A stretch of DNA of 64,000 nt from Actinomycetes bacterium (GTDB lineage Bacteria > Actinomycetota > Acidimicrobiia > Acidimicrobiales > Bog-793), in NCBI GenBank assembly GCA_021798745.1, contig JAJZBW010000001.1, positions 1,188 to 65,187 on the forward strand, written 5' to 3'. Positions 9,432-50,636 of the stretch are shown here, piece by piece (position 1 is the first letter of the stretch; every line of letters starts with the position of its first letter). The position numbers were made by a program, and so were the translations under genes. The notes beneath the pieces are model-generated. The model saw only the letters and a list, made by a program, of their open reading frames with translations, searched no databases and was not told the origin of the DNA.

Positions 9432-9435
9432 GACG

Positions 9436-31581: not shown

Positions 31582-31609
31582 ACCGGAGGGCTTCGGAGAA
31601 GGTGGCTGC

Positions 31610-33394: not shown

Positions 33395-33401
33395 GCGCGC
33401 C

Positions 33402-34634
33402 ATGTCCATGACGACGTACGAGTACCGGGTCCGCGACAACGCGGGCAAGGTCGTGAAGGGCAGGATCGACGCGGACAACAAGTCGCTCGTCGCGACACGG
33501 CTTCGCGAGATGGGGTACCTTCCCATCGAGATCAAGGCGACGTCCGCGCTCGACCTCCACCGGGACATCCGGATCCCGGGCCTGAGCGACCGGGTGAACC
33601 TGAAGGAGATCTCGGTGATGAGCCGCCAGCTCGCGACGATGGTCGCGTCGGGGCTCACTCTCGTGCGGGCGATCGCCGTGCTCTCCGCCCAGGTCGAGTC
33701 CAAGCCGCTCCGCACCGTGCTCGTCGCCGTGCGCAGCGACGTCGAGCACGGAAGCTCGTTCTCCGCCGCCCTCGCGAAGCACCCGAAGGTCTTCGACCGC
33801 CTCTACGTGTCCATGGTGCGCGCGGGCGAGGTCGGTGGGCAGCTCGACGTCGTGCTCTTGAAGCTCGCGTCCTCGATCGAGAAGCGGGTCGAGCTGCGCT
33901 CCAAGGTGCGCTCGGCGTTCACCTACCCGGTCGTCGTCGTGTGCGTCGTCGTGCTCGTGATCACCGCGATGATGCTGTTCGTCGTCCCGACCTTCAAGCA
34001 CCTCTACGGGAGCCTCCACGGCACGCTCCCGCTCCCGACGCGCATCGTCATCGGCATCTCGAGCGTCGTCGCGAGCGTCTGGGCGCTCGCGGTGGTCGCT
34101 GTCGTCGCCGGCGTCGTCCTCGCTGCCCGCTGGTGGGTGTCGACCGAGAAGGGGCGACTCACCTGGGATCGTGTCCGGCTCCGTGCACCCGTGTTCGGCC
34201 CGCTCATGTTGAAGGTCGGCCTCTCCCGCATGCTCGCGACCCTCGCGACCCTTCTCTCCTCGGGCGTCGGCATCATCGAGTCCCTCGAGATGGCCGCGGA
34301 CAACGTGAGCAACCGGATCGTGAGCAACGCGGCCCGCGGGGCGATCGTGGGCGTGCGCGACGGGCGCTCGCTCGCGTCGGCGCTCGCCGAGCACCCGGTC
34401 GTCCCCCCGATGGTCCTCCAGATGGTCGAGACCGGCGAGGAGTCGGGCGCGGTGAGCGACATGCTGGAGAAGGTCGCCCAGTTCTACGACAACGAGATCG
34501 ACGCGACGGTCGGGAGCCTCACGTCGCTCCTCGAGCCCGCGCTCATCGTGTTCATGGGCATCTGCATCGGAGCGATCGTCATCAGCCTCTACCTGCCGAT
34601 GTTCGACTACGTAAAGCTCCTCCAGCCGTCGTAA
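33402..34634 (+). CDS. pilC: Type IV pilus platform protein PilC (GspF family)
   Basis: It has two T2SSF repeats, three TM segments and the typical C-terminus (LLEPALIVFMGICIGAIVISLYLPMF). Confidence 0.92.
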   Translation: MSMTTYEYRVRDNAGKVVKGRIDADNKSLVATRLREMGYLPIEIKATSALDLHRDIRIPGLSDRVNLKEISVMSRQLATMVASGLTLVRAIAVLSAQVESKPLRTVLVAVRSDVEHGSSFSAALAKHPKVFDRLYVSMVRAGEVGGQLDVVLLKLASSIEKRVELRSKVRSAFTYPVVVVCVVVLVITAMMLFVVPTFKHLYGSLHGTLPLPTRIVIGISSVVASVWALAVVAVVAGVVLAARWWVSTEKGRLTWDRVRLRAPVFGPLMLKVGLSRMLATLATLLSSGVGIIESLEMAADNVSNRIVSNAARGAIVGVRDGRSLASALAEHPVVPPMVLQMVETGEESGAVSDMLEKVAQFYDNEIDATVGSLTSLLEPALIVFMGICIGAIVISLYLPMFDYVKLLQPS

Positions 34635-34685
34635 GGAGATGGGTCCGGTGCACCGTTGCGAAGGGCGTGAGAAGGGGCGGGCGAC

Positions 34686-36395: not shown

Positions 36396-36982
36396 GCGCC
36401 CCGGCCCGCAGCCTCGTGCAGCGCCCGGCGGTGCTCGTCTCGGTCGTCGGCGTCCTCGTGCTCGCTCTCGCGTGGTGGTTCGCGTGGATGGCGCCGGAGG
36501 GGACGAAGCTCGCGGGGATCCGCCAGCAGCAGGTCACCGCGCAGCAGACCGAGACGCGCCTCGACCTCCGGCTCGTCCAGCTCCGAGCGGAGGCCAAGCA
36601 GGTCCGGGCCGCCGCCCCGTTCCTCGAGCACTTCGCCCAGGCGATCCCGCCGGTCCCCGACGCCCCGGACCTCGTCGTCCAGGTGTACCACCTCGCGGTC
36701 GCGAACGGCGTGAGCCTGCAGAGCGTGACCGACGACTCCGTGCAGACCACGGGGCTCGGGTACTCGACGATCCCCGTCTCGCTCAGCGTCGCGGGGCCCC
36801 ACGACCAGCTCCTCGCGTTCGTCTCCGGCCTGTACAGGCTGACCCGCCTTCTCACGATCCAGTCCGTGAGCCTCTCCGGCAACGGCAACCTGAACGCGTC
36901 GAGCTTCTCGAACTACACGGCCTCGATCAGCGCGACCGCGTACACGACGTCGGCGCCGAAGGCCCCGGCGGGCGCGTCCTGA
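36392..36982 (+). CDS. pilO: PilO-like pilus assembly protein
   Basis: An ATGA overlap joins it to pilMN. It has an N-terminal TM (VLVSVVGVLVLALAWWF), a coiled coil and a PilO-type C-domain (IPVSLSVAGPHDQLLAFVSGLYRLTRLLTI). Confidence 0.8.
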   Translation: MSAPARSLVQRPAVLVSVVGVLVLALAWWFAWMAPEGTKLAGIRQQQVTAQQTETRLDLRLVQLRAEAKQVRAAAPFLEHFAQAIPPVPDAPDLVVQVYHLAVANGVSLQSVTDDSVQTTGLGYSTIPVSLSVAGPHDQLLAFVSGLYRLTRLLTIQSVSLSGNGNLNASSFSNYTASISATAYTTSAPKAPAGAS

Positions 36983-36990
36983 GCGAGACG

Positions 36991-38556
36991 ATGGCCGCGA
37001 CACCGTGGTCTCGTCGCGCTCGCGCCGACGCGCGCCGCGCGTGCGCCGGCGCGCCCCTCGACGACGGGTTCTCCCTCGTCGAGGTGCTCGTCGCGCTCCT
37101 CGTGCTCGCCCTCGTCGTGCTCCCCCTCACGCTCGTGCTCATAACGACGCACAGCTCGGCGAACACCCTGCACCGTAGAGCCGAGGCGGCGGACCTCGCG
37201 ACCCAGGCCCTCGAGACGGCCCAGTACCAGGCGGCCGCGGGCGCGCCGCTCGCGACCGGGGCGACGACGTCGACCCAGATGTCGGGGAGCGACCAGTTCC
37301 GCGTCTCGCTCGACCTCTCGATCCTCCCGCAGTCCGGGGTCGGCACGTTGTGCACGGCCCCTCCCGGGGCGACCTCGACCGAGGTGTGGCAGGCGACCGC
37401 GTCCGTGAGCTGGGGGTCGTCGGGGTCGAGCGGGAGCTCGGTCGTCGAGCGCGCGCTCATCTCGCCCGCGCAGGCCGACCTCGCGAACGTGAGCGCGGGC
37501 GAGATCGCCGTCCCGGTCTACACGACCGTCGCGTCCTCCATGTCGACGACCACGACGACGTCCTCCCCCGGCTCGCCCGCGGCGCTCCCGACGACGCTCG
37601 AGACACAGACCCCGATATCGGTGACCGTGACGGGCCGCTGCACCCTCGCATCCTGCGCGCAGCCCTCGGGCACCCCCCTGCCCGTGACGACGGAGACCGA
37701 GAACACAGGGTCGACCGGGTGCGCGGTCTTCCCGAACCTCTGGGCAGCGACGGGGTGGCTCTACACCGTGACCGTCTCCGGGAACGCGGGATGGGTCGAC
37801 CCGAGCGAGCTCTCGGACTCGGCGACCGCGACGGGCGTCCCGACGCTCGCGCCGATGGCGATCACTCCCGACTCCGTCACCCAGCCGACCGGCCAGATCG
37901 TCCTCGACCAGGGAGCGGCGGTCACGGTCGACTTCTCGGACACCGTGAACAAGTCGGCGGTGCCAGCTCCGTTCCTCCCCGTGACCTTCGTGAGCCCCGG
38001 GGCGTGCGGGAGCGCGGGCCTGTGCGTGCTCGGGAACGCGACGACTGCGTTCGCGACGGTGGCGTCCTCGGCGCAGACCGCCCTGCTCTTCCCGTTCCCC
38101 TCGGCCGGCGCCAACTACACGGTGTACGCGGGAGGGACGTCCGACGCGGACCCGAGCGCCGCGTACTACGGGACGGGCGGGACGGTCACGCGTCTCACGG
38201 CCGGCGCCGCGGGATCGGCGACGGTCACGCTGCCGCTGTACCCGCTCTCGCTGACGGCGACCGTGAAGAGCGACGCGGGCTCCGTCATCCAGCTCCTCGC
38301 GAAGGACTCGGCGGGGAACACGATCGACCTCAACTACGCGGGCGGGACCGGGGCGAGCCTCACGAGCCTTCCGCTCGGGGAGTACGAGATCGGGGCGACC
38401 GTCTCGGGCTCGAACTCGAACGTCACGTACTCGGGTGGGACCGCGTACATGTGGGTCACACCGACGGGAGTCTGCCCCTCCACGTCGCCGCTCTCCCCGG
38501 GGACCTCCGTGTGCTCGTCGCCCTCGACGTCGCAGATCGCGGTGACCGTCGGATGA
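36991..38556 (+). CDS. Large minor pilin (521 aa) with a prepilin N-terminal cleavage/methylation motif
   Basis: The class III signal is ...APLDDG|FSLVEVLVALLVLALVVLPL, with Glu5. A long Ser/Thr-rich beta-rich C-terminal region follows. Confidence 0.85.
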   Translation: MAATPWSRRARADARRACAGAPLDDGFSLVEVLVALLVLALVVLPLTLVLITTHSSANTLHRRAEAADLATQALETAQYQAAAGAPLATGATTSTQMSGSDQFRVSLDLSILPQSGVGTLCTAPPGATSTEVWQATASVSWGSSGSSGSSVVERALISPAQADLANVSAGEIAVPVYTTVASSMSTTTTTSSPGSPAALPTTLETQTPISVTVTGRCTLASCAQPSGTPLPVTTETENTGSTGCAVFPNLWAATGWLYTVTVSGNAGWVDPSELSDSATATGVPTLAPMAITPDSVTQPTGQIVLDQGAAVTVDFSDTVNKSAVPAPFLPVTFVSPGACGSAGLCVLGNATTAFATVASSAQTALLFPFPSAGANYTVYAGGTSDADPSAAYYGTGGTVTRLTAGAAGSATVTLPLYPLSLTATVKSDAGSVIQLLAKDSAGNTIDLNYAGGTGASLTSLPLGEYEIGATVSGSNSNVTYSGGTAYMWVTPTGVCPSTSPLSPGTSVCSSPSTSQIAVTVG

Positions 38557-39605
38557 CCGCTCCGTCGCGCCCGAGCGCCCCGCACCTCGGCCGTCCCCTA
38601 CGCCGCGCACGCAGGGGGGACGGAGGGTTCACGTTCATCGAGCTCCTCGTCGCGATGGCCGTCCTCGCGATCATCGTGCCCGTCATCTACGGGCTCATAG
38701 GGAACCTGAGCCAGCAGAGCGTCGACCTCCACGACACGATGCTCGGGCTGAAGCAGGACCAGACCGCCGGCAACGCGCTCCTCGAGTACCTGCACGGCGC
38801 GGTCACGGTCCTGCCGGGGTCGACCCCGACGACGCTCATCGCCTCGATCGAGGCGGGCTACAACACGACCACCGGGACCCAGGACATCGCGACGCTCGAA
38901 GCCCAGCTCGTGCCGCCGAGCGGCTCGAACGCCGACGCGTCCTTCGTCGTGTCCATCACCCCGCAGGGCGGGACGCCGCACCCCATCGGGACGTACTACG
39001 TCGTGAACGGCGCGAACCCCTTCACGTACTACTACTACGCGGCTGCGGGAACTGCAGCTCCCTCGTGCGGAGCGACGACCCCGACGACCACGACCAACCC
39101 GCCGGACGCGACCGGCCAGGAGCTCGTCGCGGTCCACGACCCGTGCGCCGTGCTCGCGAACGTCGTCGCGGTCGGGGTCGACGTCACGTTCCTCGCCGGG
39201 CCGCAGAAGCCCCTCCAGGGCTTCCAGGCAATCCAGCCGACGACGTTCCAGACGACCGTGTACCTCCAGAACGCGAACGCCCCCGCCCCGACGACCGCGA
39301 CGGCCGTGACCTACCCGAACATCTCGCCGACCTACGGGACCACGGTGGCGTTCACCGTCACGGTCACTCCCGCGCCCGACGGGGGCACGGTCACCGCGGT
39401 CGTCACGTTCGGGGGCTCGACGATCTCGAACTCCTGCTCGGGCGCCACGACGCTCTCGGCGACCGGTCAGGCGTCGTGCTCGTTCTTCGCGTCCTACCGC
39501 GGCACGTACACGGTCACCGCGACCTACTCGGGCGCGACGAGCCCACCCGCTGCCTCGGCCTACACCGCGTCGACCTCGGCGGGCACGCCGGTGAACGCGT
39601 CGTGA
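38553..39605 (+). CDS. Minor pilin (350 aa) with a C-terminal Ig-like domain
   Basis: An ATGA overlap joins it to the upstream gene. The signal is ...RRGDGG|FTFIELLVAMAVLAIIV. The C-terminus resembles a bacterial Ig-like fold (TTVAFTVTVTPAPDGGTVTAVVTFGGSTI...GTYTVTATYSGA). Confidence 0.85.
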   Translation: MTAPSRPSAPHLGRPLRRARRGDGGFTFIELLVAMAVLAIIVPVIYGLIGNLSQQSVDLHDTMLGLKQDQTAGNALLEYLHGAVTVLPGSTPTTLIASIEAGYNTTTGTQDIATLEAQLVPPSGSNADASFVVSITPQGGTPHPIGTYYVVNGANPFTYYYYAAAGTAAPSCGATTPTTTTNPPDATGQELVAVHDPCAVLANVVAVGVDVTFLAGPQKPLQGFQAIQPTTFQTTVYLQNANAPAPTTATAVTYPNISPTYGTTVAFTVTVTPAPDGGTVTAVVTFGGSTISNSCSGATTLSATGQASCSFFASYRGTYTVTATYSGATSPPAASAYTASTSAGTPVNAS

Positions 39606-41980
39606 GCGCGCCCCGCACGCTCCGGCGCCGGGCGCGCCGAGGGGTCGCGTCGGCGCTCCACCGGCGGCTCGAGGCCGTGCGCCACGGCCGGGACGACTCG
39701 GGCCAGATCATCGTGATCATCGTGATCCTCGTCGTGCTCCTCTCGGTCCTCGGCCCGCTCATGGCGTCTCAGATCACGAGCGACGCCCCGCTCGTCGTGC
39801 TCTCCACGAACAAGCACGCTGCTCTCGCCGCGGCGGAGTCCGGGATCGAGTGGTACCGGAACCACCTCGACGCGAACCCGAACTACTACCTCTACAGCGC
39901 CTCGAACCCGCCGTCCCCCGCGGACCCGGCGATGCTGGCGAACGGGTGGTGCTCGTCCGCGTGCGACCTCGGGGGAACGAGCCCGAGCGAGGCGTTCCAC
40001 TACGTCCCGAACGACTCGACCCTGTTCGCGACCTCCGGGACGAACGCGGGGCGCGTCGTGCTGACCGTGACCGGCCGGGGTGGCTCCGCGGGGAGCTACG
40101 TGTACGTGACCGCACGTGCGAGCTTCACCGCGAGCTCGATCCTCGCGAACGCGTACTTCTCGAACACCGAGGTCCTCGACCCCCTCTACCCCGACGAGCA
40201 GCAGACGGGCGTCTCGGTGACCGGGCTGAGCGCTCCCCAGGGGATCACGACGTACCCCGTGACGTACCCCGTGAACGGGACCGACACGACGACCTCGCTC
40301 TGGAACGCGCTCTGCGGCTACCAGACGTACCAGGCCAACACCTTCCTCGACTGGCTCGGCCAGACGCAGAACACGCAGATCGACGCGGAGAGCGCGACGA
40401 ACCCGAGCAACGTCACCGTGCAGGCGTACACGCCCACGCACCCCTACTACGGCCCCTACTACGGGGTCCAGGGGTTCAGCTTCACGAACGGCAACGGCGA
40501 GACCGTGAGCGTCCCGGGCATCGCGTGCGGCGGGACGTTCGACTTCAACACCGGCGAGAGCTTCGCGGGCCCCGTGTACTCGAACGACCAGCTCCACGTG
40601 TGTGGCTCGCCGACGTTCTCGGGGTCGCCCATCTCCTACACCTCGGGGGTCTCCTCGAACGTCGCCTACGCCTACGACTGGCTCGGCTCGGTGGAGGTCA
40701 CGCCGAAGACGGGCTCCCCCTACTACGCACCGGACGGAACGACCGTCGACCCCGTCCAGGGGTACTGCGGGCGGGGCGCGGCGCCGAACTTCGTGCACGG
40801 CTCGAGCCTGAACGGGAGCCTCGTCCTCCCGAGCTGGAACACCCAGCTCGCGTCCGCCGCGGCAGCCGGAGGGTGCCTGTTCACGGGACCGACGATGATC
40901 GCGCTCGTGACCTCGTCGACAGGAACGACGATGAACGTGTGGAGCCCGCTCTCAGGAGGCGCGAACGCCCCGGCCGCCGCGTGCAGCACGGGGAAGAGCC
41001 CGACCGGTGCGTCGCTCACGTCGTTCGGCCAGAGCTTCTCGGGGAGCTCGGGCCCGTACATCACGGGAATCCCGCTCCCCTCGAACGGCGTGGTCTTCGT
41101 CCAGAACGCAGGGGCGGCCGCGAGCGCCCCGACGGTCCAGGACGGCCTCAACAGCACGAACTCCGGGTGCATCAACCCGTACGTGAACCTCACGCAGGCG
41201 AACAACCCGATCCTGCCGACGGTCACGAAGACCTCCGCGACCTGCCTCGAGGGTGACGCCTTCGTGGAGGGAGAGCTGAAGGGCGAGCTCACGATCGGGT
41301 CCGCCGCGAACATCATCATCACCCGCGACCTCACGTACGCGTGCGCAGACGGGACGAGCGGGCCCGCGTCCCGGTCGGACCCGTCCTCCGTCGCCGCGTG
41401 CACGACGGGGACCACCCCGGACGTCCTCGGGCTCGAAGCCTTCGACAACGTCCTCATATCGCACCCCGTGAGCTCCCCCTACTCGGCCGCCCAGATGGCG
41501 AGCGGCACCCTCACGAACAACGGCGTGTCGATGTGCACCTACGACGGCACGGCCGCGACCGCTGCGACGCTCGCGGGGGGGACCTCGGGCGACCCCACGA
41601 GCGGGAAGACGATCGGCGAGCCCGTCGCGGTGTGGCCGAGCTGTGACATCGCGAACCCGATCGTCGACGCCGCCGTGATCTCGCTGAACGGCGCTCTCGG
41701 CGTCGAGTTCTGGGACCAGGGCTCCCCGCAGGCCTCGAACGGGGTGTTCCTGAACGGCGCGGACATAAGCCAGTACCGGGGACCTTTCGGGCTGATGAGC
41801 CCGTACTACGGAACCTGGGGGTACGACAAGCAGTTCAGCTTCGACAGCCGCCTCCAGTTCCTCCAGCCCCCCGACGCGCTCCAGTCGGCCGTGACCTCCT
41901 GGCAGGACCTCGGGTACGTCGTGTGCGGCAACGCGAACATCGCGACCGAGCCGACCCCCGTGTGCCCGCCGCTCGGCTAG
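39602..41980 (+). CDS. PilX-N-like, membrane-anchored large pilus-associated protein (792 aa, Cys-rich), a putative tip or adhesin component
   Basis: A GTGA overlap joins it to the upstream gene. The N-terminus DDSGQIIVIIVILVVLLSVLGPL resembles PilX_N and has no Glu5. I count about 16 Cys. The rest belongs to no family I recognise. Confidence 0.75.
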   Translation: MSAPRTLRRRARRGVASALHRRLEAVRHGRDDSGQIIVIIVILVVLLSVLGPLMASQITSDAPLVVLSTNKHAALAAAESGIEWYRNHLDANPNYYLYSASNPPSPADPAMLANGWCSSACDLGGTSPSEAFHYVPNDSTLFATSGTNAGRVVLTVTGRGGSAGSYVYVTARASFTASSILANAYFSNTEVLDPLYPDEQQTGVSVTGLSAPQGITTYPVTYPVNGTDTTTSLWNALCGYQTYQANTFLDWLGQTQNTQIDAESATNPSNVTVQAYTPTHPYYGPYYGVQGFSFTNGNGETVSVPGIACGGTFDFNTGESFAGPVYSNDQLHVCGSPTFSGSPISYTSGVSSNVAYAYDWLGSVEVTPKTGSPYYAPDGTTVDPVQGYCGRGAAPNFVHGSSLNGSLVLPSWNTQLASAAAAGGCLFTGPTMIALVTSSTGTTMNVWSPLSGGANAPAAACSTGKSPTGASLTSFGQSFSGSSGPYITGIPLPSNGVVFVQNAGAAASAPTVQDGLNSTNSGCINPYVNLTQANNPILPTVTKTSATCLEGDAFVEGELKGELTIGSAANIIITRDLTYACADGTSGPASRSDPSSVAACTTGTTPDVLGLEAFDNVLISHPVSSPYSAAQMASGTLTNNGVSMCTYDGTAATAATLAGGTSGDPTSGKTIGEPVAVWPSCDIANPIVDAAVISLNGALGVEFWDQGSPQASNGVFLNGADISQYRGPFGLMSPYYGTWGYDKQFSFDSRLQFLQPPDALQSAVTSWQDLGYVVCGNANIATEPTPVCPPLG

Positions 41981-42152: not shown

Positions 42153-42755
42153 ATGGAAGAGTTGCGAACCCATCTCAAGCGGCATCTCTCGAAGATGTCC
42201 GAGGGCGCCGATGAGGGATTCACGCTCATCGAGCTCCTCGTCGTCCTGTTGATCCTCGGCATCCTGCTGGCGATCGCGATCCCCACGTTCCTCACGGTGA
42301 CGAAGAGCGCGACCAACACAGCGGTGACGTCGAACCTTCAGACCGCCCTCACGGGTGCGGACACCTACTACACGCAGAACAACGGGAGCTACACCTCCCT
42401 CGTCGGCGCGACGTCGGTGTCGGACATCACCCAGGAGGGGACGGGTCTCTCGTTCCCGGCCAAGACGGACGGCTCGGCGGCCTCGACCAGCTCGAAGGTC
42501 GTCAGCCTCGACGTCATCGACTCGAACGACCTCGTGCTCGCGGCGTGGAACGGGAGCAACCGCTGCTACGCGATCGCGGACCAGAAGTCGCAGGGGGTCA
42601 TCTCGACGACCTTCACCAGCCTCCCGAAGGCAGTCGGGACCTACTACGGCTGGTACAAGGCGACGACGAACGCGACCTGCACGTCGGCGGGCGCGACGGC
42701 CGTCACGGCGACCGGACCGGGCGCGTGGACGAACACGGGCGGCTTCCCGGCGTAG
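42153..42755 (+). CDS. pilA: Major type IV pilin
   Basis: AAGGAGG lies 5-6 nt upstream of the ATG. The leader MEELRTHLKRHLSKMSEGADEG precedes |FTLIELLVVLLILGILLAIAIPTF. An alternative ATG at 42195 would give an 8-aa leader. A strong hairpin follows the stop. Confidence 0.9.
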   Translation: MEELRTHLKRHLSKMSEGADEGFTLIELLVVLLILGILLAIAIPTFLTVTKSATNTAVTSNLQTALTGADTYYTQNNGSYTSLVGATSVSDITQEGTGLSFPAKTDGSAASTSSKVVSLDVIDSNDLVLAAWNGSNRCYAIADQKSQGVISTTFTSLPKAVGTYYGWYKATTNATCTSAGATAVTATGPGAWTNTGGFPA

Positions 42756-42782
42756 CACCACGAGAGGTGACGTGAATCGAGC

Positions 42783-42819
42783 CCTCGGTCGTGGCGCTCC
42801 TCGAGCGCCACGACCGAGG
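42783..42819. terminator. Strong bidirectional hairpin (15-17 bp stem: CCTCGGTCGTGGCGC...GCGCCACGACCGAGG) after pilA
   Basis: A perfect inverted repeat was read from the sequence between the convergent stops at 42755 (+) and 42918 (-). Confidence 0.7.
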
Positions 42820-42917
42820 CGAGGTGCAGGGGCCCCGGTCGGCGCATCCGGCCGGGGCCCTTCGCCGTCCGGGGCCCGCCCGTCGTGCCCGGTCGCCCGG
42901 GGCCCCGGCCGACCCGC

Positions 42918-44687
42918 TCAGCGCGTCCCGCCGAGCTGGGCCAGGAGCTGGTGCGCGGGACGGTAGCCAGGTGCGGTCGCGAGCGCGCGGCGGAGGAGCA
43001 CGACGGCCTCCGTGCTGTGCCCCTCGTGTGCCTCGACGCGGGCGAGCCCGACGAGCGCCTCGGTCGCGAACCGGTCGAGACGGAGCGCGGTGCCGTACTC
43101 GGCGGTCGCGGCGCGCAGGTTCCCGAGCTCCGCGTCGGCGCCCGCGAGACCCGTCCACATCTGGGTGTCCGTCGGGTTGCGGCTCACTGCGACCGAGTGC
43201 CAGTAGCGGGAGAGACGGAGCCAGTGCGTCCCGTCCGCGAGGGCGACCGAGCGGTTCGTGGCGACCTCGGCGGGCACGAGCGCCGCGTCGGCCCACACCG
43301 CGAGCGCCCGTGCTCCGGCCGTCGCGACCGGGTAGTCGAACCGGAGGAGAGCGACGTTGAGCTCGTAGTCCCCGTAGAGCATGACGGCGGACGCGCCGAG
43401 CGCGACGAGCGTGAGCGCTGCCGTCGCCGCGTGGCGCGCCCGGCCGCGGCTCGGGCCGCCCGAGAGCGCCGTCCCCGCACCGGCCGCTCCGAGCGCGAGG
43501 AACGCGATCGGCGTGACCCCGACGTTGAGGGGCTCGACGAGCTCGACCGCGACCGCCATCACGGCGACGCCGAGGAGCGCTCCGGAGGCGCCCCGGAGCG
43601 CGAGAAGCCCGAACGCGGCGAACGCGAGGATCCCGAGGATCCCGGTCGTGATCGCGACCTCGACGAAGATGTCGTGCGCGTCCGTGAAGTACGTCGCGAC
43701 CGGGAGGCGCCGCGCGAGCGCCGCCGACTCGAACGCGGTCGACGCCTGGAGGGTCTGGCCCGGGCCGAAGCCGATCAGCGGCCGATGCTCGAACGCATGG
43801 AGGAGCACCTTCCACAAGGTGGGACGCGGGTTCGAGACGACGCTCTGCGCGATGCGCTCGTGGACGAGCGCGCTCGAGAGCCCGTAGGTCACGGCGTAGC
43901 CCGCCGCGAGCGACGCGGCGAACAGGGCGGCGAAGCGGTCCCGGTGGACGACGAGCGCCCACGCGGCGAGGAGCGCGAGGAGGGCGATCGCGAACCGCTC
44001 GCCGCTGAGCTCGAGCGACGCGGAGAGCAGGAGGGCGAGGAGCGACCACCTCCACCTCCCGGAGCACGTGCGCACGAGAACGACCGCGAGCGCTCCGAGC
44101 TCGATGCTCTCGAGGAAGATCGGGTTCCCCATGAGCCCGTCCGCCTGCGTGCCCTGGTAGAGGCCGAGGACCGGGCTCGCGAGCTGGAAAGCCTGCTGGA
44201 CGATCGCCACGAGGGCGTTCACGACGGCGCTCGCGACGAGACCGGCCACGACGAGCTCCCGGCCGCGCGGGCCGGTCGAGCGACCGATCGCCCACGCCCC
44301 GACGACGCCGCACCAGAACACCCACCCGGTCCCGGTGAGGTACCCCCCGAAGAACCCCGACAGCACGCTCCCGGAGGACGCGGCCGAGGCGAGCCCGACG
44401 GCGAGGAACGCGGCCGCCGCCCACGCGGCGCGGTCCCGCGCGCGGCATCGACGTGCGAGCTGAGGCAGCCCGACGGCCGCGACGACGAGCAGGACCGCGA
44501 GCTTCGGCGTGAACGTGTAGGAGCCCATGACCGGGGAGATCGCGACGGGGAGGAGGAACGCGACGATCGCCGCGAACACGTCGAGGGCTCCCGCTCCCTC
44601 GAGCCACTCCGGCACGGCGAAGCGCGAGGTCGGCGCGGCACCGGTGATTGAATTGGTCACGGTGGCGAGGTCAGCGCGGTGGCTCAT
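42918..44687 (-). CDS. O-antigen ligase/polymerase-like (Wzy_C) polytopic membrane protein with C-terminal TPR repeats
   Basis: The Wzy_C-type loop reads HRPLIGFGPGQ...DAHDIFVEVAITTGILGIL. It has more than 10 TM segments. The C-terminus looks TPR-like (AELGNLRAATAEYGTALRLD...). The start is uncertain (44687, 44660 or 44615). Confidence 0.8.
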   Translation of the reverse strand: MSHRADLATVTNSITGAAPTSRFAVPEWLEGAGALDVFAAIVAFLLPVAISPVMGSYTFTPKLAVLLVVAAVGLPQLARRCRARDRAAWAAAAFLAVGLASAASSGSVLSGFFGGYLTGTGWVFWCGVVGAWAIGRSTGPRGRELVVAGLVASAVVNALVAIVQQAFQLASPVLGLYQGTQADGLMGNPIFLESIELGALAVVLVRTCSGRWRWSLLALLLSASLELSGERFAIALLALLAAWALVVHRDRFAALFAASLAAGYAVTYGLSSALVHERIAQSVVSNPRPTLWKVLLHAFEHRPLIGFGPGQTLQASTAFESAALARRLPVATYFTDAHDIFVEVAITTGILGILAFAAFGLLALRGASGALLGVAVMAVAVELVEPLNVGVTPIAFLALGAAGAGTALSGGPSRGRARHAATAALTLVALGASAVMLYGDYELNVALLRFDYPVATAGARALAVWADAALVPAEVATNRSVALADGTHWLRLSRYWHSVAVSRNPTDTQMWTGLAGADAELGNLRAATAEYGTALRLDRFATEALVGLARVEAHEGHSTEAVVLLRRALATAPGYRPAHQLLAQLGGTR

Positions 44688-45981
44688 ATCGGGCCTGACG
44701 GTAGCCGTCGTGGTCGCGCTCGGCGAGGCTCACGCACATCTCGTCGGGCACTACCGGTTCACCGCGTTCCCGCGCTTCGGATGGCTCGTCGTGTTCACGG
44801 CCCTCCTTCTCGTGTCCTTCTACGCAGCAGGGCTCCCCGAGTCGGCCCGCCGCTTCTCCGGTGCGCTCGTCCGATCGTTCGCGGCGGCCCTCGTCGCGGC
44901 AGGGACCGTGTCGGTCATGGCGCTCGTCGTCGGGGAGCCCCTCCTCCCGCGCTTCGTGGTGTTCCTCGCCGTGGCGCTCCTCACCCCCCTCGTCGCGCTG
45001 CTCGCGAGGCTGACCTCCGGGGTGGGCGGCCGACGCGACGCGGCCGAACGCGTGCTCGCGGTCGTCGGTCCGGCCGAGGCGGGGGCGCTCGCGGCCGACC
45101 TCAGGGTCGCCCGCGAGCGGCCCGCGTTGCTCGTGGCGAGCGCGCTCGCGCAGGACGTCCGGTCCAGCGCGTCACGCCCGCGGCCGCTCGCGGAGCTCGT
45201 CACGGCGCACCAGGCGACTCTCGTCGTGCTCTCGCGCGAGGCCATCTCGGACGAGGACGTCGTCGTGCAGGCGGCGGAGCTCCACCGTAGGGGGTGCAAG
45301 GTCCGCACGCTCGCCCTGTTCTACGACCAGTGGCTCGGCAAGCTCCCGCTCAGCGAGCTCGAGCGGTCCGCGCTCCTCTTCGACATCCACGAGATCCACA
45401 ACCCCGCGTACGCGCGCACGAAGCGAGCGGTCGACGTGCTCGCCTCGCTGTGCGCGCTCCCTCTCCTCGCGCTCGCCGCGGTCCTCGTCGTGGTCGCGGA
45501 CCTCGCCGGGAACCGCGGTCCGTTGCTCTACCGACAAGAGCGCGTCGGGAAGGACGGGAGGATCTTCACGATCCTCAAGTTCCGGACGATGGCCCCGCTC
45601 TCGGGCGAGCCGACCTGGACGAGCGTGGACGACCGCCGTGTCGGCCGGGTGGGGCGCGCCATGCGCAAGACCCACGTCGACGAGCTCCCCCAGGTCCTGA
45701 ACGTGCTCCGTCGCGAGCTGTCCATAGTCGGCCCCCGTCCCGAGCAGCCCCGATACGTCGCCGAGCTCGCACGGAGGATCGACTACTACGACCTCCGCCA
45801 CCTCGTGCAGCCGGGGATCACCGGCTGGGCACAGGTGAACTTCGACTACGGCTCGAGCGGGTTCGACGCGCTCGAGAAGCTCCAGTACGAGTTCTACTAC
45901 CTGCGCCACCAGAGCCTCCTCCTCGACGCGCGCATCGTGGGGCGGACGCTCCGCTCGATCGTCGGTCGCACGGGCCGTTAG
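44662..45981 (+). CDS. Polyprenyl-phosphate glycosyl-phosphotransferase (bacterial sugar transferase, WbaP/EpsB-like)
   Basis: The motifs are GKDGRIFTILKFRTM, DELPQVLNVLRRELSIVGPRP and GITGWAQV. The start is uncertain (GTG at 44662, or later at about 44710). Confidence 0.88.
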   Translation: MARSARWLISGLTVAVVVALGEAHAHLVGHYRFTAFPRFGWLVVFTALLLVSFYAAGLPESARRFSGALVRSFAAALVAAGTVSVMALVVGEPLLPRFVVFLAVALLTPLVALLARLTSGVGGRRDAAERVLAVVGPAEAGALAADLRVARERPALLVASALAQDVRSSASRPRPLAELVTAHQATLVVLSREAISDEDVVVQAAELHRRGCKVRTLALFYDQWLGKLPLSELERSALLFDIHEIHNPAYARTKRAVDVLASLCALPLLALAAVLVVVADLAGNRGPLLYRQERVGKDGRIFTILKFRTMAPLSGEPTWTSVDDRRVGRVGRAMRKTHVDELPQVLNVLRRELSIVGPRPEQPRYVAELARRIDYYDLRHLVQPGITGWAQVNFDYGSSGFDALEKLQYEFYYLRHQSLLLDARIVGRTLRSIVGRTGR

Positions 45982-45987
45982 CCCCTC

Positions 45988-47463
45988 ATGCGCGCGGCGC
46001 CGCTCGTCGAGCGAGACAGGCTCTCGGGGCGCTCGCTCGTGTCGGGCTCCGCGGTGCAGATGGGCGGGCGGGCCGCAGCCATCGTCCTCCAGGCGGCGAG
46101 CGTCGCGCTTCTCACGCGTCTGCTCGGCCAGGCGCGCTTCGGGGACTTCTCCGCCGGGCTCGCGACGGTCGGGATCGTGGCCGCGGTGGCCGAGTTCGGG
46201 CTCACCGCGATGGCCGTCGTCCGGATGGGGAGAGGGGAGGCGGCGCGCTCCGTCGTCCGCTCGTGCGCGCTCGCGTCGCTCGTGACCGGGCTCGTGGGCC
46301 TCGCGATCGCGGTCCCCACGTCGTTCGCCCTGTTCGACGCGTCGAAGAGGCTCGCGCTCTGGGTGCTCCTCCCGGGGACCGCCGTCGAGCTCGGTGGGAT
46401 CGGGCTCGTCGCGTACTGGCAGCACCGCCTCGCGTTCGCCCGGAACGCCCTCGCGTCCGCGGCCGGGCAGGCCGTCGGGTGCGCGCTGGTCGCCGTCGTC
46501 CTTCTCGACGGGCGTCGGCTCGGCGAGAGCGCGCAGTTCCTCGCGGTCGGCGGTGCGATGCTCGCAGCGTCGGCCACGGTCGTCGCGCTCCTCGTGCCGC
46601 GCGGCCCCGACAGGCTCGCTGGCGCCCCGCGTTCCCCGGCCGCACGTGACGTGCGCTCCCTCCTCCTCGCGGCACTCCCGCTCGGGCTGGCGGGCTCCCT
46701 GTCCCTCATGCACATGCGCGCCGACCAGGTGATCCTCGCGGCCCTCGGCTACAGGAGGAGCCTCGCGAGCTATGCGATCGCCTACCAGGTGCTCCAGGGA
46801 GTCGTCGTCGCGGTCGGGTCGGTCGGCGCGGTCGGGTTCAGCTTCATGGCAGCGAGCAGCTCCGGTGACCGCGCGCGCCACGCGCGACGTTCCGCCGCGC
46901 TCCTGTGCGACCTCGGGGTCGTGGCGTCCGCCGGGGTGGCGCTCCTCGCGCCGGTGGCCGTGTACCTGCTCGGGGGGTCTTCCTACGACGGGGCGCTCCA
47001 CGTGAGCAGGCTGCTCGCGCCCGTCGTGGTGCTGTCCGTCGGCAACACGATGGCAGGGCGCGTCCTCATCGTCGAAGGGCGCGCGCGGTCCCTCGTGTAC
47101 GTCGCGTCCGGCGCGCTCCTCGTGAACGTCGCGCTGTGCCTCCTCCTCATCCCCCGCTACGGGATCGGCGGGGCCGCCGTCGCGACGGTGTCCTCCGAGG
47201 CGCTCGGGGCCGCCCTCGTCGTCGCGATCGCCGAGCGTGCCGTTCCGACGAGCCAGCCGGTCGCGATCCTCGTCGTGGCGGCGGTGGGCTCGACTGCCGC
47301 GGCTCTCACGAGCGCCTCGTCGTCGGGGGGCGTCCCCGTGTCACTCGGCCTGTGGGCCGCGACGCTCGTCGGGTGCCTCCTTCTCTCCCGAGAGGCCTGG
47401 AGCCGACGTGACCCGCTCCGGGCCGGCGCGCCCTGCGCGCTCGAGGAGCCGGACGCGCGCTGA
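45988..47463 (+). CDS. Polysaccharide biosynthesis protein / Wzx-like flippase (MOP superfamily)
   Basis: It is a 491-aa polytopic protein of about 12-14 TM segments, sitting in a glycan cluster. No sharp motif supports the call, only topology and context. Confidence 0.6.
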   Translation: MRAAPLVERDRLSGRSLVSGSAVQMGGRAAAIVLQAASVALLTRLLGQARFGDFSAGLATVGIVAAVAEFGLTAMAVVRMGRGEAARSVVRSCALASLVTGLVGLAIAVPTSFALFDASKRLALWVLLPGTAVELGGIGLVAYWQHRLAFARNALASAAGQAVGCALVAVVLLDGRRLGESAQFLAVGGAMLAASATVVALLVPRGPDRLAGAPRSPAARDVRSLLLAALPLGLAGSLSLMHMRADQVILAALGYRRSLASYAIAYQVLQGVVVAVGSVGAVGFSFMAASSSGDRARHARRSAALLCDLGVVASAGVALLAPVAVYLLGGSSYDGALHVSRLLAPVVVLSVGNTMAGRVLIVEGRARSLVYVASGALLVNVALCLLLIPRYGIGGAAVATVSSEALGAALVVAIAERAVPTSQPVAILVVAAVGSTAAALTSASSSGGVPVSLGLWAATLVGCLLLSREAWSRRDPLRAGAPCALEEPDAR

Positions 47464-48228
47464 GGCCACGAGGTCGAGCGCGATCCCCTCGACGAGCGCC
47501 CTCGGGGTGACGACCTCGGGCCACCGCCTCCTCGCGCCCCGGTGCACCGCGAGCAGCGAACGGACGGGGAGCGAGTTCCGCGAGCCTCCCTCGTGCCGGC
47601 GGTAGCCGAGCCAGGTGTCCGGGACCGGCACCCCCGTCGCCCCGCGCGAGAGGGCGGCGACCCAGAAGGCCCAGTCCTCCATCCCGGTGCGATCGAACCC
47701 CGCGTCGAACCCGCCCACCTGCTCGAAGAGCTCGCGGGTGAACATCGCCGACCCGTTCACGAAGTTCGCCCTCGCGAGCCTCCGGGGGTCGAAGGGCCGC
47801 GCGGGCCAGGACCCGGAGCGGCTCCCGAAGTAGCGGACGCCGCTGTAGGCGAAGGACGCCTCGGTCCCGACGAGCCGCGCCTCGAGCGCCTCGAGGTAGT
47901 TCGGTGCGACGACGTCGTCCGCGGAGAGGATCACGACGAGCTCCCCACCCGTGGCGCGCACCCCGTCGTTGAAGGTCGCGACCGCCCCGCGTGCGGGCGC
48001 GCGGGAGAGCACGCCGCAGGCGGGCCATCGCTCGGCGAAGGCGCGGGCGACGTCGAGCGTCTCGTCGGCGCTCCCGTCGTCGACCACGAGGACCTCGTCG
48101 GCGGGTCGCGTCTGCGCCGCGATGCTCCCGAGCGCGTCCGGGAGGAACCGCCCGTAGTCGTGGCAGGGGACGACCACGCTCAGCGTCCGCACGCCCCCGG
48201 GGATCGCCGCGCGCAGCGGAGCGCTCAC
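47341..48228 (-). CDS. Glycosyltransferase family 2
   Basis: The motifs LSVVVPCHDYGRFLPDALGSIAAQT...VLVVDDGSADET and SADD are present. Its 3' end overlaps the flippase 3' end by 123 nt (convergent). Confidence 0.85.
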   Translation of the reverse strand: MSAPLRAAIPGGVRTLSVVVPCHDYGRFLPDALGSIAAQTRPADEVLVVDDGSADETLDVARAFAERWPACGVLSRAPARGAVATFNDGVRATGGELVVILSADDVVAPNYLEALEARLVGTEASFAYSGVRYFGSRSGSWPARPFDPRRLARANFVNGSAMFTRELFEQVGGFDAGFDRTGMEDWAFWVAALSRGATGVPVPDTWLGYRRHEGGSRNSLPVRSLLAVHRGARRRWPEVVTPRALVEGIALDLVASARVRLLERAGRAGPERVTSAPGLSGEKEAPDERRGPQAE

Positions 48229-48274
48229 GTCACCACGCTACCGACGGGTGCCGGCGGGCCGGTAGCGTCGGTCC

Positions 48275-49141
48275 GTGGCGACGGGAGACGCTCGACGGAC
48301 ATCGGCCGTCGTCGTGAACTTCAACGCCGGCCCCTCTCTCCTCGAGTGCGTCGCGAGCCTGCGGCGCGAGCAGGTCTCCGAGGTCGTCGTCGTGGACAAC
48401 TCCTCGATCGACGGCTCTCCCGCGGCGCTCGCACGCGCCGACCCGGGCGCGGACCTTGTCGCGGCCGGGGGGAACCTCGGGTACGGGGCGGCCGTGAACC
48501 TCGGGGCGGGGAGGACCGCGTCGGAGTTCCTCCTCGTCTGCAACCCCGACACCTCCCTCGAGCCCGGAGCGCTCGCGGCCCTCGAGAGCCGCCTCGTGCA
48601 CGACCCGTCGCTCGCCGTCGTCGGTCCGGCCCTCGTCGCCCCGGACGGGGCGAGCAGTCGCTCGGGCGGGGCGTTCCCCACGGTCCGTGGCTCGCTCCTC
48701 CCGGCCGCGCTCGGGGTCCTCTCCCCACGGGGCCGCTACAGCACGCGCCACCGCGCCGCGAACGCGGCGCGCACCGAGTCCGGGGTCGTGGACTGGGTGA
48801 CCGGCGCGTGCATGCTCATCCGTCGGTGCGCGTTCGACGAGGTGTCGGGCTTCGACCCCGGGTACTTCATGTACGTCGAGGAGGTCGACCTCTGCTGGCG
48901 CCTCGCGCAGCGGGGCTGGCGCACGGGCTACGAGCCTCGAGCACGGGTCGTGCACCTGGCCGGGCTCTCCGCAGGGACCCGCCCGTACCGGATGCTCGTC
49001 GCGCACCATCGGTCCCTGTGGCGCTTCGCCCGTCGATCGGCCCGCGGCCCAGAGGTCGTCCTCCTGCCTGCCGTCGCCGTCGGGGTCGTGCTCCGCTGGG
49101 CGGTCGCGTCGGCCCGCAGGGCCGTGCTCGGGCGGAGCTGA
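48275..49141 (+). CDS. Glycosyltransferase family 2 (rhamnosyltransferase-like)
   Basis: The motifs are AVVVNFNAGPSLLECVASL...VVVVDNSSIDGS, NLGYGAAVN and FMYVEEVDLCWR. Confidence 0.85.
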   Translation: MATGDARRTSAVVVNFNAGPSLLECVASLRREQVSEVVVVDNSSIDGSPAALARADPGADLVAAGGNLGYGAAVNLGAGRTASEFLLVCNPDTSLEPGALAALESRLVHDPSLAVVGPALVAPDGASSRSGGAFPTVRGSLLPAALGVLSPRGRYSTRHRAANAARTESGVVDWVTGACMLIRRCAFDEVSGFDPGYFMYVEEVDLCWRLAQRGWRTGYEPRARVVHLAGLSAGTRPYRMLVAHHRSLWRFARRSARGPEVVLLPAVAVGVVLRWAVASARRAVLGRS

Positions 49142-49183
49142 GCACCTCGGCGACGGCGGGCAGGAGCCGACGTACGGGAGCTC

Positions 49184-50119
49184 TCAGCGCGGGCGACGGG
49201 CGGCGCGAACGAGCCCGCGCACGAACCCCGCACCCCAGGACGCGTGCATCGTCGGGAGCGAGACGGCGAGCCACGGCGCCGCTGCCGGGTCGCGCGCCGT
49301 CTCGAGAGCGGCTCGGCCCGCGACGAGCGAGGAGTACGTGAGCAGCACGGCACGGCGCCACGGGCTCGCGAGGCCGACGAGGAGGAGAGGGACGGCGAGC
49401 TGGCGGGGGGAGAGGGACGCGGGGTGCTTCACGACGGTCCCCGCGCGGGCGCTCCCGTACCGGAAGTACTGGGACGCGAGCTCGCGTGGCCCGCCCCTCA
49501 CGGCGTAGCAGGAGCGTATGGACGGGTCGATCCACACGCCGCCCGCGGCCCGCGCCCGGTGCGCGAGCTCGGCGTCCTCGTTCCCCCCGAACTCCTCGTC
49601 GTAGCCTCCGAGGGCGAGCACGGTCTCGCGGCGGAACGCCCCGAGGTACACGGTGTCCACGAAGCGCGCCGGGCCGGACGCGCGGCGGAACGCCGCCGGG
49701 CCACCGCCGACCCGCGACGTCATCGCGGCGCGGATCCCCCGCTCGCGCGCCGTCTCCGCCCCGAGCCGCATCGGCCCGCCGACGATCGCCGCGCCCGATC
49801 CCGCGAGCGCGTGCACGCACCGTTCGAGGTAGTCCGGCGCGATCGTGGTCCGGACGTCGACGCGGACCACGACCTCTCCTCTCGCCTCGCGAAGTGCGAC
49901 GTTCATCGCCGCGGGACGGCTCCGACGCGGGTTGTCGATCACCCGGACTCGGGGGTGCCGAGCGGCGATCTCGCGGGTGCGGTCCCGGGAGCCCCCGTCG
50001 ACGACGAGCACCTCGACGTCGCCGTCGTAGGCCTGGTCGTCGACTGCGGCGATGCATCGCTCGATCTGGCCCTCCCCGTCGAGCACGGGTATCGCGACCG
50101 TCACGGACGGATGCGGCAC
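49184..50119 (-). CDS. Glycosyltransferase family 2 with a C-terminal membrane segment
   Basis: The motif VTVAIPVLDGEGQIERCIAAV...VLVVDGGSRDRT is present. I chose the GTG at 50119, 10 nt after the upstream stop and preceded by GAGGCGGGG. An alternative start lies at 50140. Confidence 0.8.
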   Translation of the reverse strand: MPHPSVTVAIPVLDGEGQIERCIAAVDDQAYDGDVEVLVVDGGSRDRTREIAARHPRVRVIDNPRRSRPAAMNVALREARGEVVVRVDVRTTIAPDYLERCVHALAGSGAAIVGGPMRLGAETARERGIRAAMTSRVGGGPAAFRRASGPARFVDTVYLGAFRRETVLALGGYDEEFGGNEDAELAHRARAAGGVWIDPSIRSCYAVRGGPRELASQYFRYGSARAGTVVKHPASLSPRQLAVPLLLVGLASPWRRAVLLTYSSLVAGRAALETARDPAAAPWLAVSLPTMHASWGAGFVRGLVRAARRPR

Positions 50120-50129
50120 CGTCCCCGCC

Positions 50130-50636
50130 TCACCCGTCACGGTCGCCGTGCTCCGCGAGCACCCAGCGGTTGTTTCGGCTCGTGCGCGCCTCGGCGGTCG
50201 ACTCGATGGCCCCGTCGGCCTCGAGCATCCGGAGCCACCGGAGCACGCCTTCCCGGCTGATCCCGAACCTGTCGGCGAGCTCCTGAGCGGACGCCGGCCC
50301 CTGTCGGAGCTGCTCGACGATCTCGCCCCGGCGGTCCCTGCGAAGCGGCAGCCGGTCGGCTCCCGGTCGCCTCCCACGCGGGCCGCGGCCGCGTCCTCCG
50401 GGCGCAGCGCCCGTACGGTCCCCGTCCGCCCTCGCGGGCGGCTCCCCGCCGGCGCGCCCCGGCACCTCCGGCACCTCCGGCACGTCGCGCGCCCCGTCGG
50501 CGTCGCGTGCGGAGGCGGCACGCGCGGCGGCGTCACGCCGGGAGGAGTCGAGCCGCGCGTACCCGTCGAGGAAGTCCGGGCGCACGAGCTGGTGGAGGAG
50601 GTCGTCGTGCGACCCGCCGCTCAACTCCTCGCTCAT
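50130..50636 (-). CDS. Winged-helix DNA-binding protein (ArsR/MarR-like HTH) with a disordered N-terminal half
   Basis: The C-terminal part reads EIVEQLRQGPASAQELADRFGISREGVLRWLRMLEADGAI. Confidence 0.65.
   Translation of the reverse strand: MSEELSGGSHDDLLHQLVRPDFLDGYARLDSSRRDAAARAASARDADGARDVPEVPEVPGRAGGEPPARADGDRTGAAPGGRGRGPRGRRPGADRLPLRRDRRGEIVEQLRQGPASAQELADRFGISREGVLRWLRMLEADGAIESTAEARTSRNNRWVLAEHGDRDG

Follow-up and report, generated by a model that had tools for sequence, protein, structure and literature searches.

A family of TPR-bearing Wzy_C proteins linked to type IV pilin genes in Acidimicrobiia, with a candidate role in pilin O-glycosylation

Gene content of the locus

The DNA analysed here is a stretch of 64,000 nucleotides, referred to as the window, from contig JAJZBW010000001.1 of the Acidimicrobiales assembly GCA_021798745.1 (Actinomycetes bacterium), and its G+C content is about 72%. 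The main subject is the gene of a polytopic membrane protein with a Wzy_C domain and C-terminal tetratricopeptide repeats (TPR), which is convergent with pilA, the gene of the major type IV pilin, and which we discuss as a candidate pilin-directed O-oligosaccharyltransferase (O-OTase). A preliminary description of this DNA had proposed that the pilin is O-glycosylated by this protein, by analogy with TfpO of Pseudomonas and PglL of Neisseria. All of the genes which it listed between 42153 and 50636 were recovered at the same coordinates in Pfam and NCBIfam scans of open reading frames (ORFs) chosen by codon bias (Table 1). These include, beside pilA and the Wzy_C gene, the genes of an initiating transferase (Bac_transf), a Wzx-type flippase, three GT2 glycosyltransferases and a small winged-helix protein.

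A complete type IV pilus cluster with the Pfam families T2SSE, MshEN, T2SSF, PilM_2 and N_methyl is present directly upstream of pilA (26848-41980, forward strand). The Bac_transf protein scored 272 bits against the NCBIfam model TIGR03025 (EPS_sugtrans), which is under the cut-off of 295.55, and the flippase showed a weak match to HfsF in NCBIfam. The right edge of the glycan genes is formed by housekeeping genes, encoding a PHP-domain protein and then a glutamine amidotransferase/phosphoribosyltransferase protein, which is probably purF by its domain content.

Table 1. Features of the pilus and glycan region of the window
Feature	Coordinates	Strand	Evidence
pilT	26848-27978	+	Pfam
pilB, 943 aa	28750-31581	+	Pfam
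Second T2SSE ATPase	31568-33394	+	Pfam
pilC	33384-34634	+	Pfam
pilM	34671-36395	+	Pfam
Minor pilin, 521 aa, with TTTTTSSPGSP run	36991-38556	+	Pfam
Minor pilin, 350 aa, with Big_3_5 Ig-like domain and TTPTTTTNPPD run	38553-39605	+	Pfam
791-aa ORF with N-terminal hydrophobic segment, without Pfam match	39605-41980	+	
pilA, major type IV pilin, 200-aa precursor	42153-42755	+	Pfam N_methyl, E 3.3e-07
Hairpin 1, perfect 17-bp stem, 3-nt loop	42783-42819		Inverted-repeat search
Hairpin 2, 13-bp stem	42830-42860		Inverted-repeat search
Wzy_C/WaaL-fold (modelled) polytopic membrane protein with C-terminal TPR, 589 aa	42918-44687	-	Pfam Wzy_C, TPR
Bac_transf, initiating polyprenyl-phosphate sugar-1-phosphate transferase, large WbaP/WcaJ-like type	44527-45981	+	Pfam, E 9.7e-53
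Wzx-type lipid-linked oligosaccharide flippase	45988-47463	+	Pfam Polysacc_synt, E 9.4e-09
GT2 glycosyltransferase (a)	47341-48228	-	Pfam Glycos_transf_2, E 5.8e-24
GT2 glycosyltransferase (b)	48275-49141	+	Pfam Glycos_transf_2, E 4.2e-16
GT2 glycosyltransferase (c), start approximate, abuts the stop of the winged-helix gene	~49184-50140	-	Pfam Glycos_transf_2, E 1.4e-21
Small winged-helix protein (ArsR/HTH_11-like), upstream of GT2 (c)	50130-50636	-	Several weak HTH matches in Pfam, residues 99-148

The Wzy_C/TPR protein and its family

The Wzy_C domain covers residues 217-357 (E 5.2e-15, 56 bits against a Pfam cut-off of 31.7), and TPR repeats were found by Pfam at residues 519-585. NCBIfam gave no equivalog name for the protein and showed weak matches to TPR models only. 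A protein of 100% identity is encoded in the metagenome-assembled genome (MAG) GCA_027408005.1, which is named Actinomycetota bacterium, and the close relatives come from Acidimicrobiales/Acidimicrobiaceae MAGs. A word-indexed search returned 51 homologues, nearly all of about 590 aa and positive for Wzy_C, and a profile search showed a clear gap after E ~1e-67 between these proteins and generic Wzy_C proteins. When a profile of the transmembrane (TM) core was used in an exhaustive search, 601 representatives (50%-identity clusters) were obtained at E<=1e-30, at least 150 of which were full-length at E<=1e-84, most having 550-650 aa. By these sequence comparisons, the protein belongs to a large and discrete family, so far found mainly in Acidimicrobiia MAGs. 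Pfam detected the Wzy_C domain in 79/80 sampled representatives and TPR in at least 62/80, and Wzy_C was present in all members of a separate family set (32/32). Two homologues bear the JGI name 'putative inorganic carbon transporter', which is a carry-over from the IctB-type annotation of Wzy_C.

The AF2 model of the full protein was of good quality (pLDDT 89.6, pTM 0.89). When this model was compared with the PDB by Foldseek, the matches were TPR proteins only (OGT and designed TPRs), and phmmer of the full protein against the PDB sequences likewise returned TPR chains only. The TM core was also modelled alone (pLDDT 80.4), and the sole PDB match of this model below 1e-3 was WaaL (7tpg_B, E 2.4e-05, TM 0.48/0.52, 433 aligned columns). 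A search of the PDB with the sequence profile of the TM core likewise returned WaaL 7TPG only (E 1.7e-08). A weak hhalign alignment with the single WaaL sequence of E. coli (E 0.071) paired R288 and H338 of the family with R288 and H338 of WaaL. Both WaaL residues are reported to be essential and are conserved in PglL (PMC3643930). The two positions are among those invariant in the 80 representatives, namely G114, R231, R288, G306, G308, D336, H338, G349, G352 and P386. Taken together, the models and alignments indicate that the core of the Wzy_C protein has a WaaL fold with the ligase-type residues R231, R288 and H338. The preliminary description had named grouping with the polymerases of a capsule or exopolysaccharide pathway as a result that would count against its proposal; what we found is a clade of its own, and the sole solved relative of this clade is the ligase WaaL.

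These data bear on the main alternative, in which the protein would act as Wzy polymerase for a surface or 'slime' polysaccharide made by the Wzx/Wzy route and cooperating with type IV pili, following the hps model of cyanobacteria. The linkage to pilin genes would then reflect co-regulation or co-function, and the TPR domain would touch the polymer or an export partner. We consider such a polymerase unlikely. It is favoured by the fact that a minimal Wzx/Wzy set is complete in the window, in which the Wzy_C protein stands as the single candidate, since a second Wzy-like membrane protein was not found in the window cluster. Against it, the closest solved or alignable relatives are ligases, and hhalign gave no alignment with Wzy of E. 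coli O16, which is a weak test as the Wzy proteins are extremely diverse. Partners of a polymerase were also sought. Genes for Wzz/PCP, tyrosine kinase, LCP and export proteins were not detected among the ORFs of the window, which were picked by codon GC bias and scanned with Pfam, and they were likewise not detected in the fully listed glycan clusters of three related loci (L009, L010 and L013). The lack of these components in the window and in the three lists argues against a polymerase, while co-polymerase or LCP genes could be located elsewhere in the genome.

Membrane topology

The AF2 model contains 12 core helices, an arginine-rich loop assigned to the cytoplasm (residues 403-415), a long thirteenth TM helix (TM13, residues 416-449) and the TPR domain (residues 452-588). 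In 32 members, the loops assigned to the inside had 0.16-0.34 K+R per residue, and those assigned to the outside had 0.00-0.03, except for the loops with catalytic arginines (the short loop L7 carries R231). The model and this charge distribution point to a protein of 13 TM helices with the N-terminus inside and the C-terminus outside. A location of the TPR domain outside the cell would follow from a catalytic loop that is outside as in WaaL, together with the additional TM13. For PglS, 13 TM helices are reported together with a large periplasmic domain at the C-terminus (PMC12800693), a domain that has been suggested to serve in the recognition of internal sequons (PMC9829042). Moreover, a review of S-layer glycosylation in Gram-positive bacteria noted a C-terminal TPR in the O-OTases WsfB and PglL (PMC2943079).

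Gene context across relatives

The preliminary description gave as its alternative a cell-surface polysaccharide cluster that is adjacent to the pilus operon by accident. In a closer-alignment genome scan, we found five loci (L002-L006) whose proteins are 54-70% identical to that of the window, and all of them keep pilA, a convergent Wzy_C gene and a divergent Bac_transf gene. The adjacency in these five loci says little because synteny with the window extends over the whole region, and to this extent a chance arrangement of unrelated genes could be maintained in such a narrow group.

The distant members of the family, which have 27-46% identity, were collected from exact-protein look-ups and from a metagenome scan. 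They keep a pilin beside the Wzy_C gene in differing orders and orientations, so that the adjacency noted in the preliminary description holds among relatives. A divergent Bac_transf gene is combined with a downstream pilin in the same direction in L007, with a pilin two genes downstream in L015, and with a pilin 123 bp downstream in L077. In L008, the gene is flanked on both sides by major-pilin genes, and glycan-assembly genes are absent from the vicinity. The order in L009 is pilin, PilD, pilin, PilM, PilO, Wzy_C, Bac_transf, glycosyltransferases and Wzx, and in L013 PilD and three pilins are divergent from the Wzy_C-Bac_transf pair. The metagenome scan gave 18 further loci (L017-L034), and the pilin was directly adjacent in 12 of these, counting two pilins that are cut by contig ends. 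In three of them (L020, L028 and L031), the surrounding genes are pilM, pilin, pilC, pilT and pilB, and neither Bac_transf nor GT2 was detected.

When the 26 independent rearranged contexts were considered, a pilin was located within 2 kb of the family gene in 16, in convergent, divergent or co-directional arrangement, and two more had other pilus genes within 9 kb. The family loci negative for pilin were mostly on short contigs or on contigs that end early. The same scan was applied to 40 loci of unrelated Wzy_C-domain proteins as a control (L035-L074), and a genuine pilin was found in none of them; two loci of outgroup proteins with Wzy_C and TPR also had no pilin. As the family contexts (16/26) differ in this way from the controls (0/40) and the outgroups (0/2), the pilin link is specific to this Wzy_C family, and it has survived many rearrangements. 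The same comparison contradicts the accidental neighbourhood of a polysaccharide cluster and a pilus operon, an explanation which we now regard as very improbable.

Bac_transf is the most frequent direct neighbour and adjoins the Wzy_C gene in most of the family loci. This is also what the polymerase explanation would lead one to expect, and the outgroup proteins with Wzy_C and TPR, which occur in ordinary glycan clusters, are a further point for it, as are the documented hps clusters, where a Wzx/Wzy system is joined with minor pilin genes (PMC12288463). On the other hand, at least four family loci (L008, L020, L028 and L031) have pilus genes but no glycan-assembly genes nearby, which is unexpected for a polymerase of repeat units, and the neighbouring pilin is of the major type, unlike the minor pilins of hps.

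A further possibility is a ligase or O-OTase whose acceptor is different or whose range is broader, for example an envelope glycolipid, an S-layer protein or a wide set of secreted or surface proteins. Pilins would then be at most one of the substrates, as for Neisseria PglL, and the linkage would be due to a shared regulation of envelope biogenesis. In size and architecture the protein resembles PglL and WsfB, which are general O-OTases (PMC9829042, PMC2943079). In addition, the minor pilins upstream are very rich in Thr and Ser, and some family loci have no pilin. All three points would suit a broad acceptor range. Nevertheless, we think a general enzyme of this kind quite improbable, since the tight and repeated adjacency to a major pilin is the pattern of pilin-dedicated and not of general O-OTases (PMC12645811), and no alternative acceptor gene, for example of an S-layer protein, recurred in the neighbourhoods of the distant members.

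Pilins of the window and of related loci

PilA has a prepilin cleavage site between G and FTLIELLVV after a leader of 21 residues. This is a class III signal peptide, in which a leader ending in EG is followed by FTLIELLVVLLILGILLAIAIP, with G at -1, F at +1, E at +5 and a hydrophobic helix thereafter. The protein is above the cut-offs of Pfam N_methyl and TIGR02532, and it scored 32.5 bits against the NCBIfam model IV_pilin_GFxxxE (cut-off 16.3). The leader is conserved in relatives, as the tblastn alignments begin at residues 2-4. Both Ser/Thr-rich strings quoted in the preliminary description, DGSAASTSSKVVS and TATGPGAWTNTGG, are present in the translation. PilA has two Cys near the C-terminus, a Ser/Thr/Ala-rich alpha-beta loop and a Ser/Thr/Gly-rich tail beyond the second Cys, which ends in TNTGGFPA, so that the last residue is Ala.

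The pilins beside the family members are also major-pilin-like, with 140-185 residues when mature in the pilin alignment. They share the conserved N-terminal helix, the two Cys and the Ser/Thr/Gly-rich tail after the second Cys, and they have a Ser/Ala/Thr-rich segment just ahead of the first strand, which is PAKTDGSAASTSSKVVS in PilA of the window. The last residue of the family pilins is A, S, K, G, F or W. Because PilA ends in Ala and the family pilins end in these different residues, a glycan site would be expected to be internal, and the pilin sequences suggest two possible places for it, namely the alpha-beta loop rich in Ser, Ala and Thr or the Ser/Thr/Gly tail that follows the disulfide. 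A glycosylation of the terminal residue in the manner of TfpO was rejected, as the pilin C-termini are not a conserved Ser or Thr. The minor pilins encoded upstream of pilA are very large and rich in Thr and Ser. By their sequence, their Thr/Ser/Pro runs look like further targets of O-glycosylation.

Comparison with known systems

PglL of Neisseria and PglS of Acinetobacter baylyi are similar to the family protein in having a Wzy_C/WaaL-like core with conserved Arg/Arg/His residues. They have about 520-620 aa (589 aa in the window protein), 13 TM helices and, beyond these, a C-terminal domain of considerable size outside the cytoplasm (PMC9829042, PMC12800693). An internal acceptor site is expected in both cases, and adjacency to a pilin is frequent, as for PglS and ComP and for 21/31 PglL homologues (PMC3643930, PMC9829042, PMC12800693). 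They differ in that the C-terminal domain of the family is a canonical TPR, that the host is a monoderm actinobacterium and not a proteobacterium, and that the neighbouring initiating transferase is of the large WbaP/WcaJ type. The marker domains PglL_A (PF15864) and Wzy_C_2 (PF11846, the PglL_B region) gave no match in 32 members at E<=1. They were also not among the 25 families listed for the 80 representatives (E<=0.1), where the unlisted families match very few members each. Membership in the PglL/PglS class was rejected because these domains are absent.

TfpO (PilO) and TfpM, which are known from Pseudomonas, Acinetobacter and Moraxellaceae, are also Wzy_C enzymes encoded beside a pilin, with which they form dedicated pairs (PMC9829042, PMC12645811). 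They have 420-470 aa and no C-terminal domain (PMC9829042, Table 2), whereas the window protein has 589 aa with a TPR domain of about 140 aa. TfpO and TfpM glycosylate a C-terminal Ser/Thr, whereas PilA of the window ends in Ala. Moreover, their genes directly follow the pilin gene in the same orientation, whereas the window genes are convergent and the orientation in the family is variable. Membership in TfpO/TfpM was rejected because of these differences in protein size, C-terminal domain, pilin terminus and gene orientation.

The S-layer O-OTases WsaB and WsfB of Gram-positive Bacillales, which we compared by their description, are likewise from monoderm bacteria. They have Wzy_C with a C-terminal TPR (WsfB) or with a separate TPR protein (WsaA/WsaB), and their pathway is started by a WbaP-like Gal-1-P transferase (PMC2943079). 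Their acceptor is an S-layer protein, and in G. stearothermophilus an ABC transporter exports the glycan, whereas the window has a type IV pilin and Wzx. WaaL, represented by 7TPG of Cupriavidus metallidurans and by the E. coli enzyme, is the sole significant match of both profile and structure, and R288/H338 are aligned with it. It differs in having 12 TM helices, no C-terminal domain, lipid A-core as the acceptor and a location in core loci of lipopolysaccharide (LPS), whereas the window protein adds TM13 and the TPR domain. Actinomycetota are known to lack LPS. LPS genes were not found in the 64-kb window, and in view of this context and the actinobacterial source, an identity with WaaL is unlikely.

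In cyanobacteria, a TPR-containing glycosyltransferase gene, ogt, is also found beside pilA and affects PilA glycosylation (PMC12288463). Ogt is a soluble cytoplasmic GT41 enzyme and not a Wzy_C membrane protein. The cyanobacterial hps locus resembles the window in joining a Wzx/Wzy polysaccharide locus with pilin genes (PMC12288463), while its pilins are minor and it makes a secreted polysaccharide. By analogy, the mechanism of the family would resemble that of the pilin-adjacent O-OTases of Gram-negative bacteria and of the S-layer O-OTases of Bacillales.

Proposed pathway and its weighing

Our results suggest that the Wzy_C/TPR protein is probably a pilin-directed O-OTase, which would transfer a short glycan linked to undecaprenyl pyrophosphate (Und-PP) onto an internal site of the pilin. 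In the proposed pathway, Bac_transf would act at the cytoplasmic face and load undecaprenyl phosphate with a sugar-1-phosphate, the three GT2 enzymes would lengthen the glycan to a short oligosaccharide of perhaps about four sugars, and Wzx would flip the Und-PP-oligosaccharide outward. The Wzy_C core would then grip the pyrophosphate via R231 and R288, use H338 as the base and move the glycan en bloc onto a Ser/Thr hydroxyl of the membrane-anchored PilA before or during pilus assembly. The Thr/Ser-rich minor pilins may also be acceptors of the glycan. The TPR domain, which TM13 would place outside, may hold the protein acceptor, by analogy with the C-terminal domains of PglL and PglS and the TPR of WsfB.

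An O-OTase role would explain both of the recurrent neighbours, as one of them starts the donor pathway and the other is the acceptor. It would also account for the loci which contain only pilus genes, for a fold and residues of the ligase type, for a TPR domain that faces outward and for the lack of polymerase partners. A precedent is given by the PglL homologues, 21 of 31 of which adjoin pilin genes (PMC3643930), and experiments have confirmed O-OTases that are encoded beside a pilin (PMC3643930, PMC9829042).

Several points weigh against a pilin-directed O-OTase. Polymerases and ligases alike contain Wzy_C domains and are inseparable by sequence alone, and an initiating transferase, Wzx, glycosyltransferases and one Wzy_C protein are also exactly the minimal Wzx/Wzy set for a polysaccharide. 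The marker domains of PglL and PglS are absent from the family, and in the window the enzyme gene faces pilA in convergent orientation, with no shared transcript. At the two outgroup loci, proteins that combine Wzy_C with TPR occur in plain glycan clusters, and therefore a TPR alone does not imply a protein acceptor. Within the family, at least one locus (L011/L012) has full flanks without a pilin and is a clear exception, and in L010 the Wzy_C gene is at the head of a glycan cluster which ends at PilO/PilM, with the nearest pilus genes 8.6 kb off. Finally, the members are known as sequences only, all of them taken from uncultured MAGs or metagenomes.

Compared with what the preliminary description had proposed, the functional link to the pilin is supported by the present data. 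Its analogy to TfpO and PglL agrees with the mechanism that we propose, while the assignment to either of these families does not stand.

Relation to the known classes of O-OTase

Four classes of O-OTase are recognised (TfpO, TfpM, PglS and PglL), and all of them are Gram-negative (PMC12645811). In the literature searched, we found no paper in which pilins and O-antigen-ligase-like enzymes are brought together with Acidimicrobiia or Actinobacteria, and the Wzy_C/TPR family may be undescribed.

Acidimicrobiia are abundant in soil and water and almost uncultured. To our knowledge, O-antigen-ligase-like enzymes that O-glycosylate pilins with lipid-linked glycans are known from Gram-negative bacteria only, and the protein O-glycosylation that has been characterised so far in Actinomycetota is mannosylation of the Pmt type. 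We see roughly even chances that the family represents a fifth class of O-OTase, with a WaaL-fold core, TM13 and an outward TPR domain as the module for pilin docking. Such a class would comprise hundreds of clusters, mainly of Acidimicrobiia, dedicated to the type IV pilins of monoderm bacteria and starting from a hexose-1-phosphate placed by a WbaP/WcaJ-type transferase, and it would be the first case of lipid-linked en bloc glycosylation of pilin in Actinomycetota.

If this is true, a pilin-dedicated O-OTase family would extend the lipid-linked mechanism to the type IV pili of monoderm bacteria, and it would provide a testable handle on pilus decoration in Acidimicrobiia. A new class with a modular TPR domain for acceptor binding would also join the small toolbox for bioconjugate vaccines. 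Each of the new O-OTase classes PglS and TfpM brought new glycan or sequon specificities (PMC9829042, PMC12800693). Solved structures of O-OTases are lacking (PMC12800693), and the confident AF2 model of a member with a TPR domain therefore offers a concrete hypothesis of acceptor recognition.

Other features of the region

The spacer between the convergent stop codons of pilA and the Wzy_C gene is 162 bp long (42756-42917). The preliminary description had counted one strong hairpin in it; a hairpin is indeed present, and a second one accompanies it (Table 1). Both are G+C-rich. The folding energy of the spacer RNA was -110.4 kcal/mol (z = -4.99), and 0/200 shuffled sequences folded as well. 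A scan of this 72% G+C DNA for consensus promoters and terminators showed nothing relevant and did not flag the two hairpins, because they lack a T-run. The pair probably acts as a bidirectional terminator.

The 5' ends of the Wzy_C gene (reverse strand) and the Bac_transf gene (forward strand) overlap by 161 nt (44527-44687), and an overlap was also seen in L002 and L003. The homologous transferases at the family loci have only 430-446 aa, and for this reason the true start of Bac_transf is probably further downstream. The promoters of these two divergent genes must be tightly packed. The 3' ends of the flippase gene and the convergent GT2 gene (a) overlap by 123 nt (47341-47463), with low-complexity tails in both ORFs, and these tails may be read-through extensions typical of stop-poor DNA.

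The GT2 protein (c) showed 71-77% identity to its counterparts in L002, L003 and L005. The C-terminal HTH of the winged-helix protein is 84-86% identical in L002 and L003, and this protein may regulate the glycan genes. The part before the HTH, in the middle of the protein, is variable and rich in repeats, and tandem repeats of the APGAEPE(T/A)VA type are found there in L002 (2334-3032).

The pilus cluster has some unusual features of its own. The pilB product is unusually long, with two MshEN stretches before the ATPase, and the second T2SSE ATPase also has MshEN. Together with the separate pilT, this makes three ATPases in one actinobacterial pilus cluster.

Two other loci of the survey have features of interest. 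In L008, genes with adh_short, FAD_binding_4 and UbiA domains are located at 6418-9568, a few kb from the pilin-Wzy_C-pilin trio. We take this domain content to resemble that of DprE2, DprE1 and Rv3806c of decaprenyl-phosphoryl-arabinofuranose synthesis, which may be a coincidence. Decaprenyl-phosphoryl-arabinofuranose is the donor for the arabinofuranose glycosylation of Pseudomonas group IV pilins. In L075, which is from the unrelated MAG GCA_041643055.1, three tandem paralogous genes for Wzy_C+TPR proteins of about 730-750 aa each were found (5815-12457). They lie between a gene pair for a sigma-70 and a 1273-aa protein and a GT4-rich glycan cluster, with no pilin nearby.

At the left end of the window, a Mu-type transposase/integrase with rve and Mu-transpos_C_2 domains is encoded at 185-1756 on the reverse strand, and this gene is unrelated to the pilin and glycan finding.

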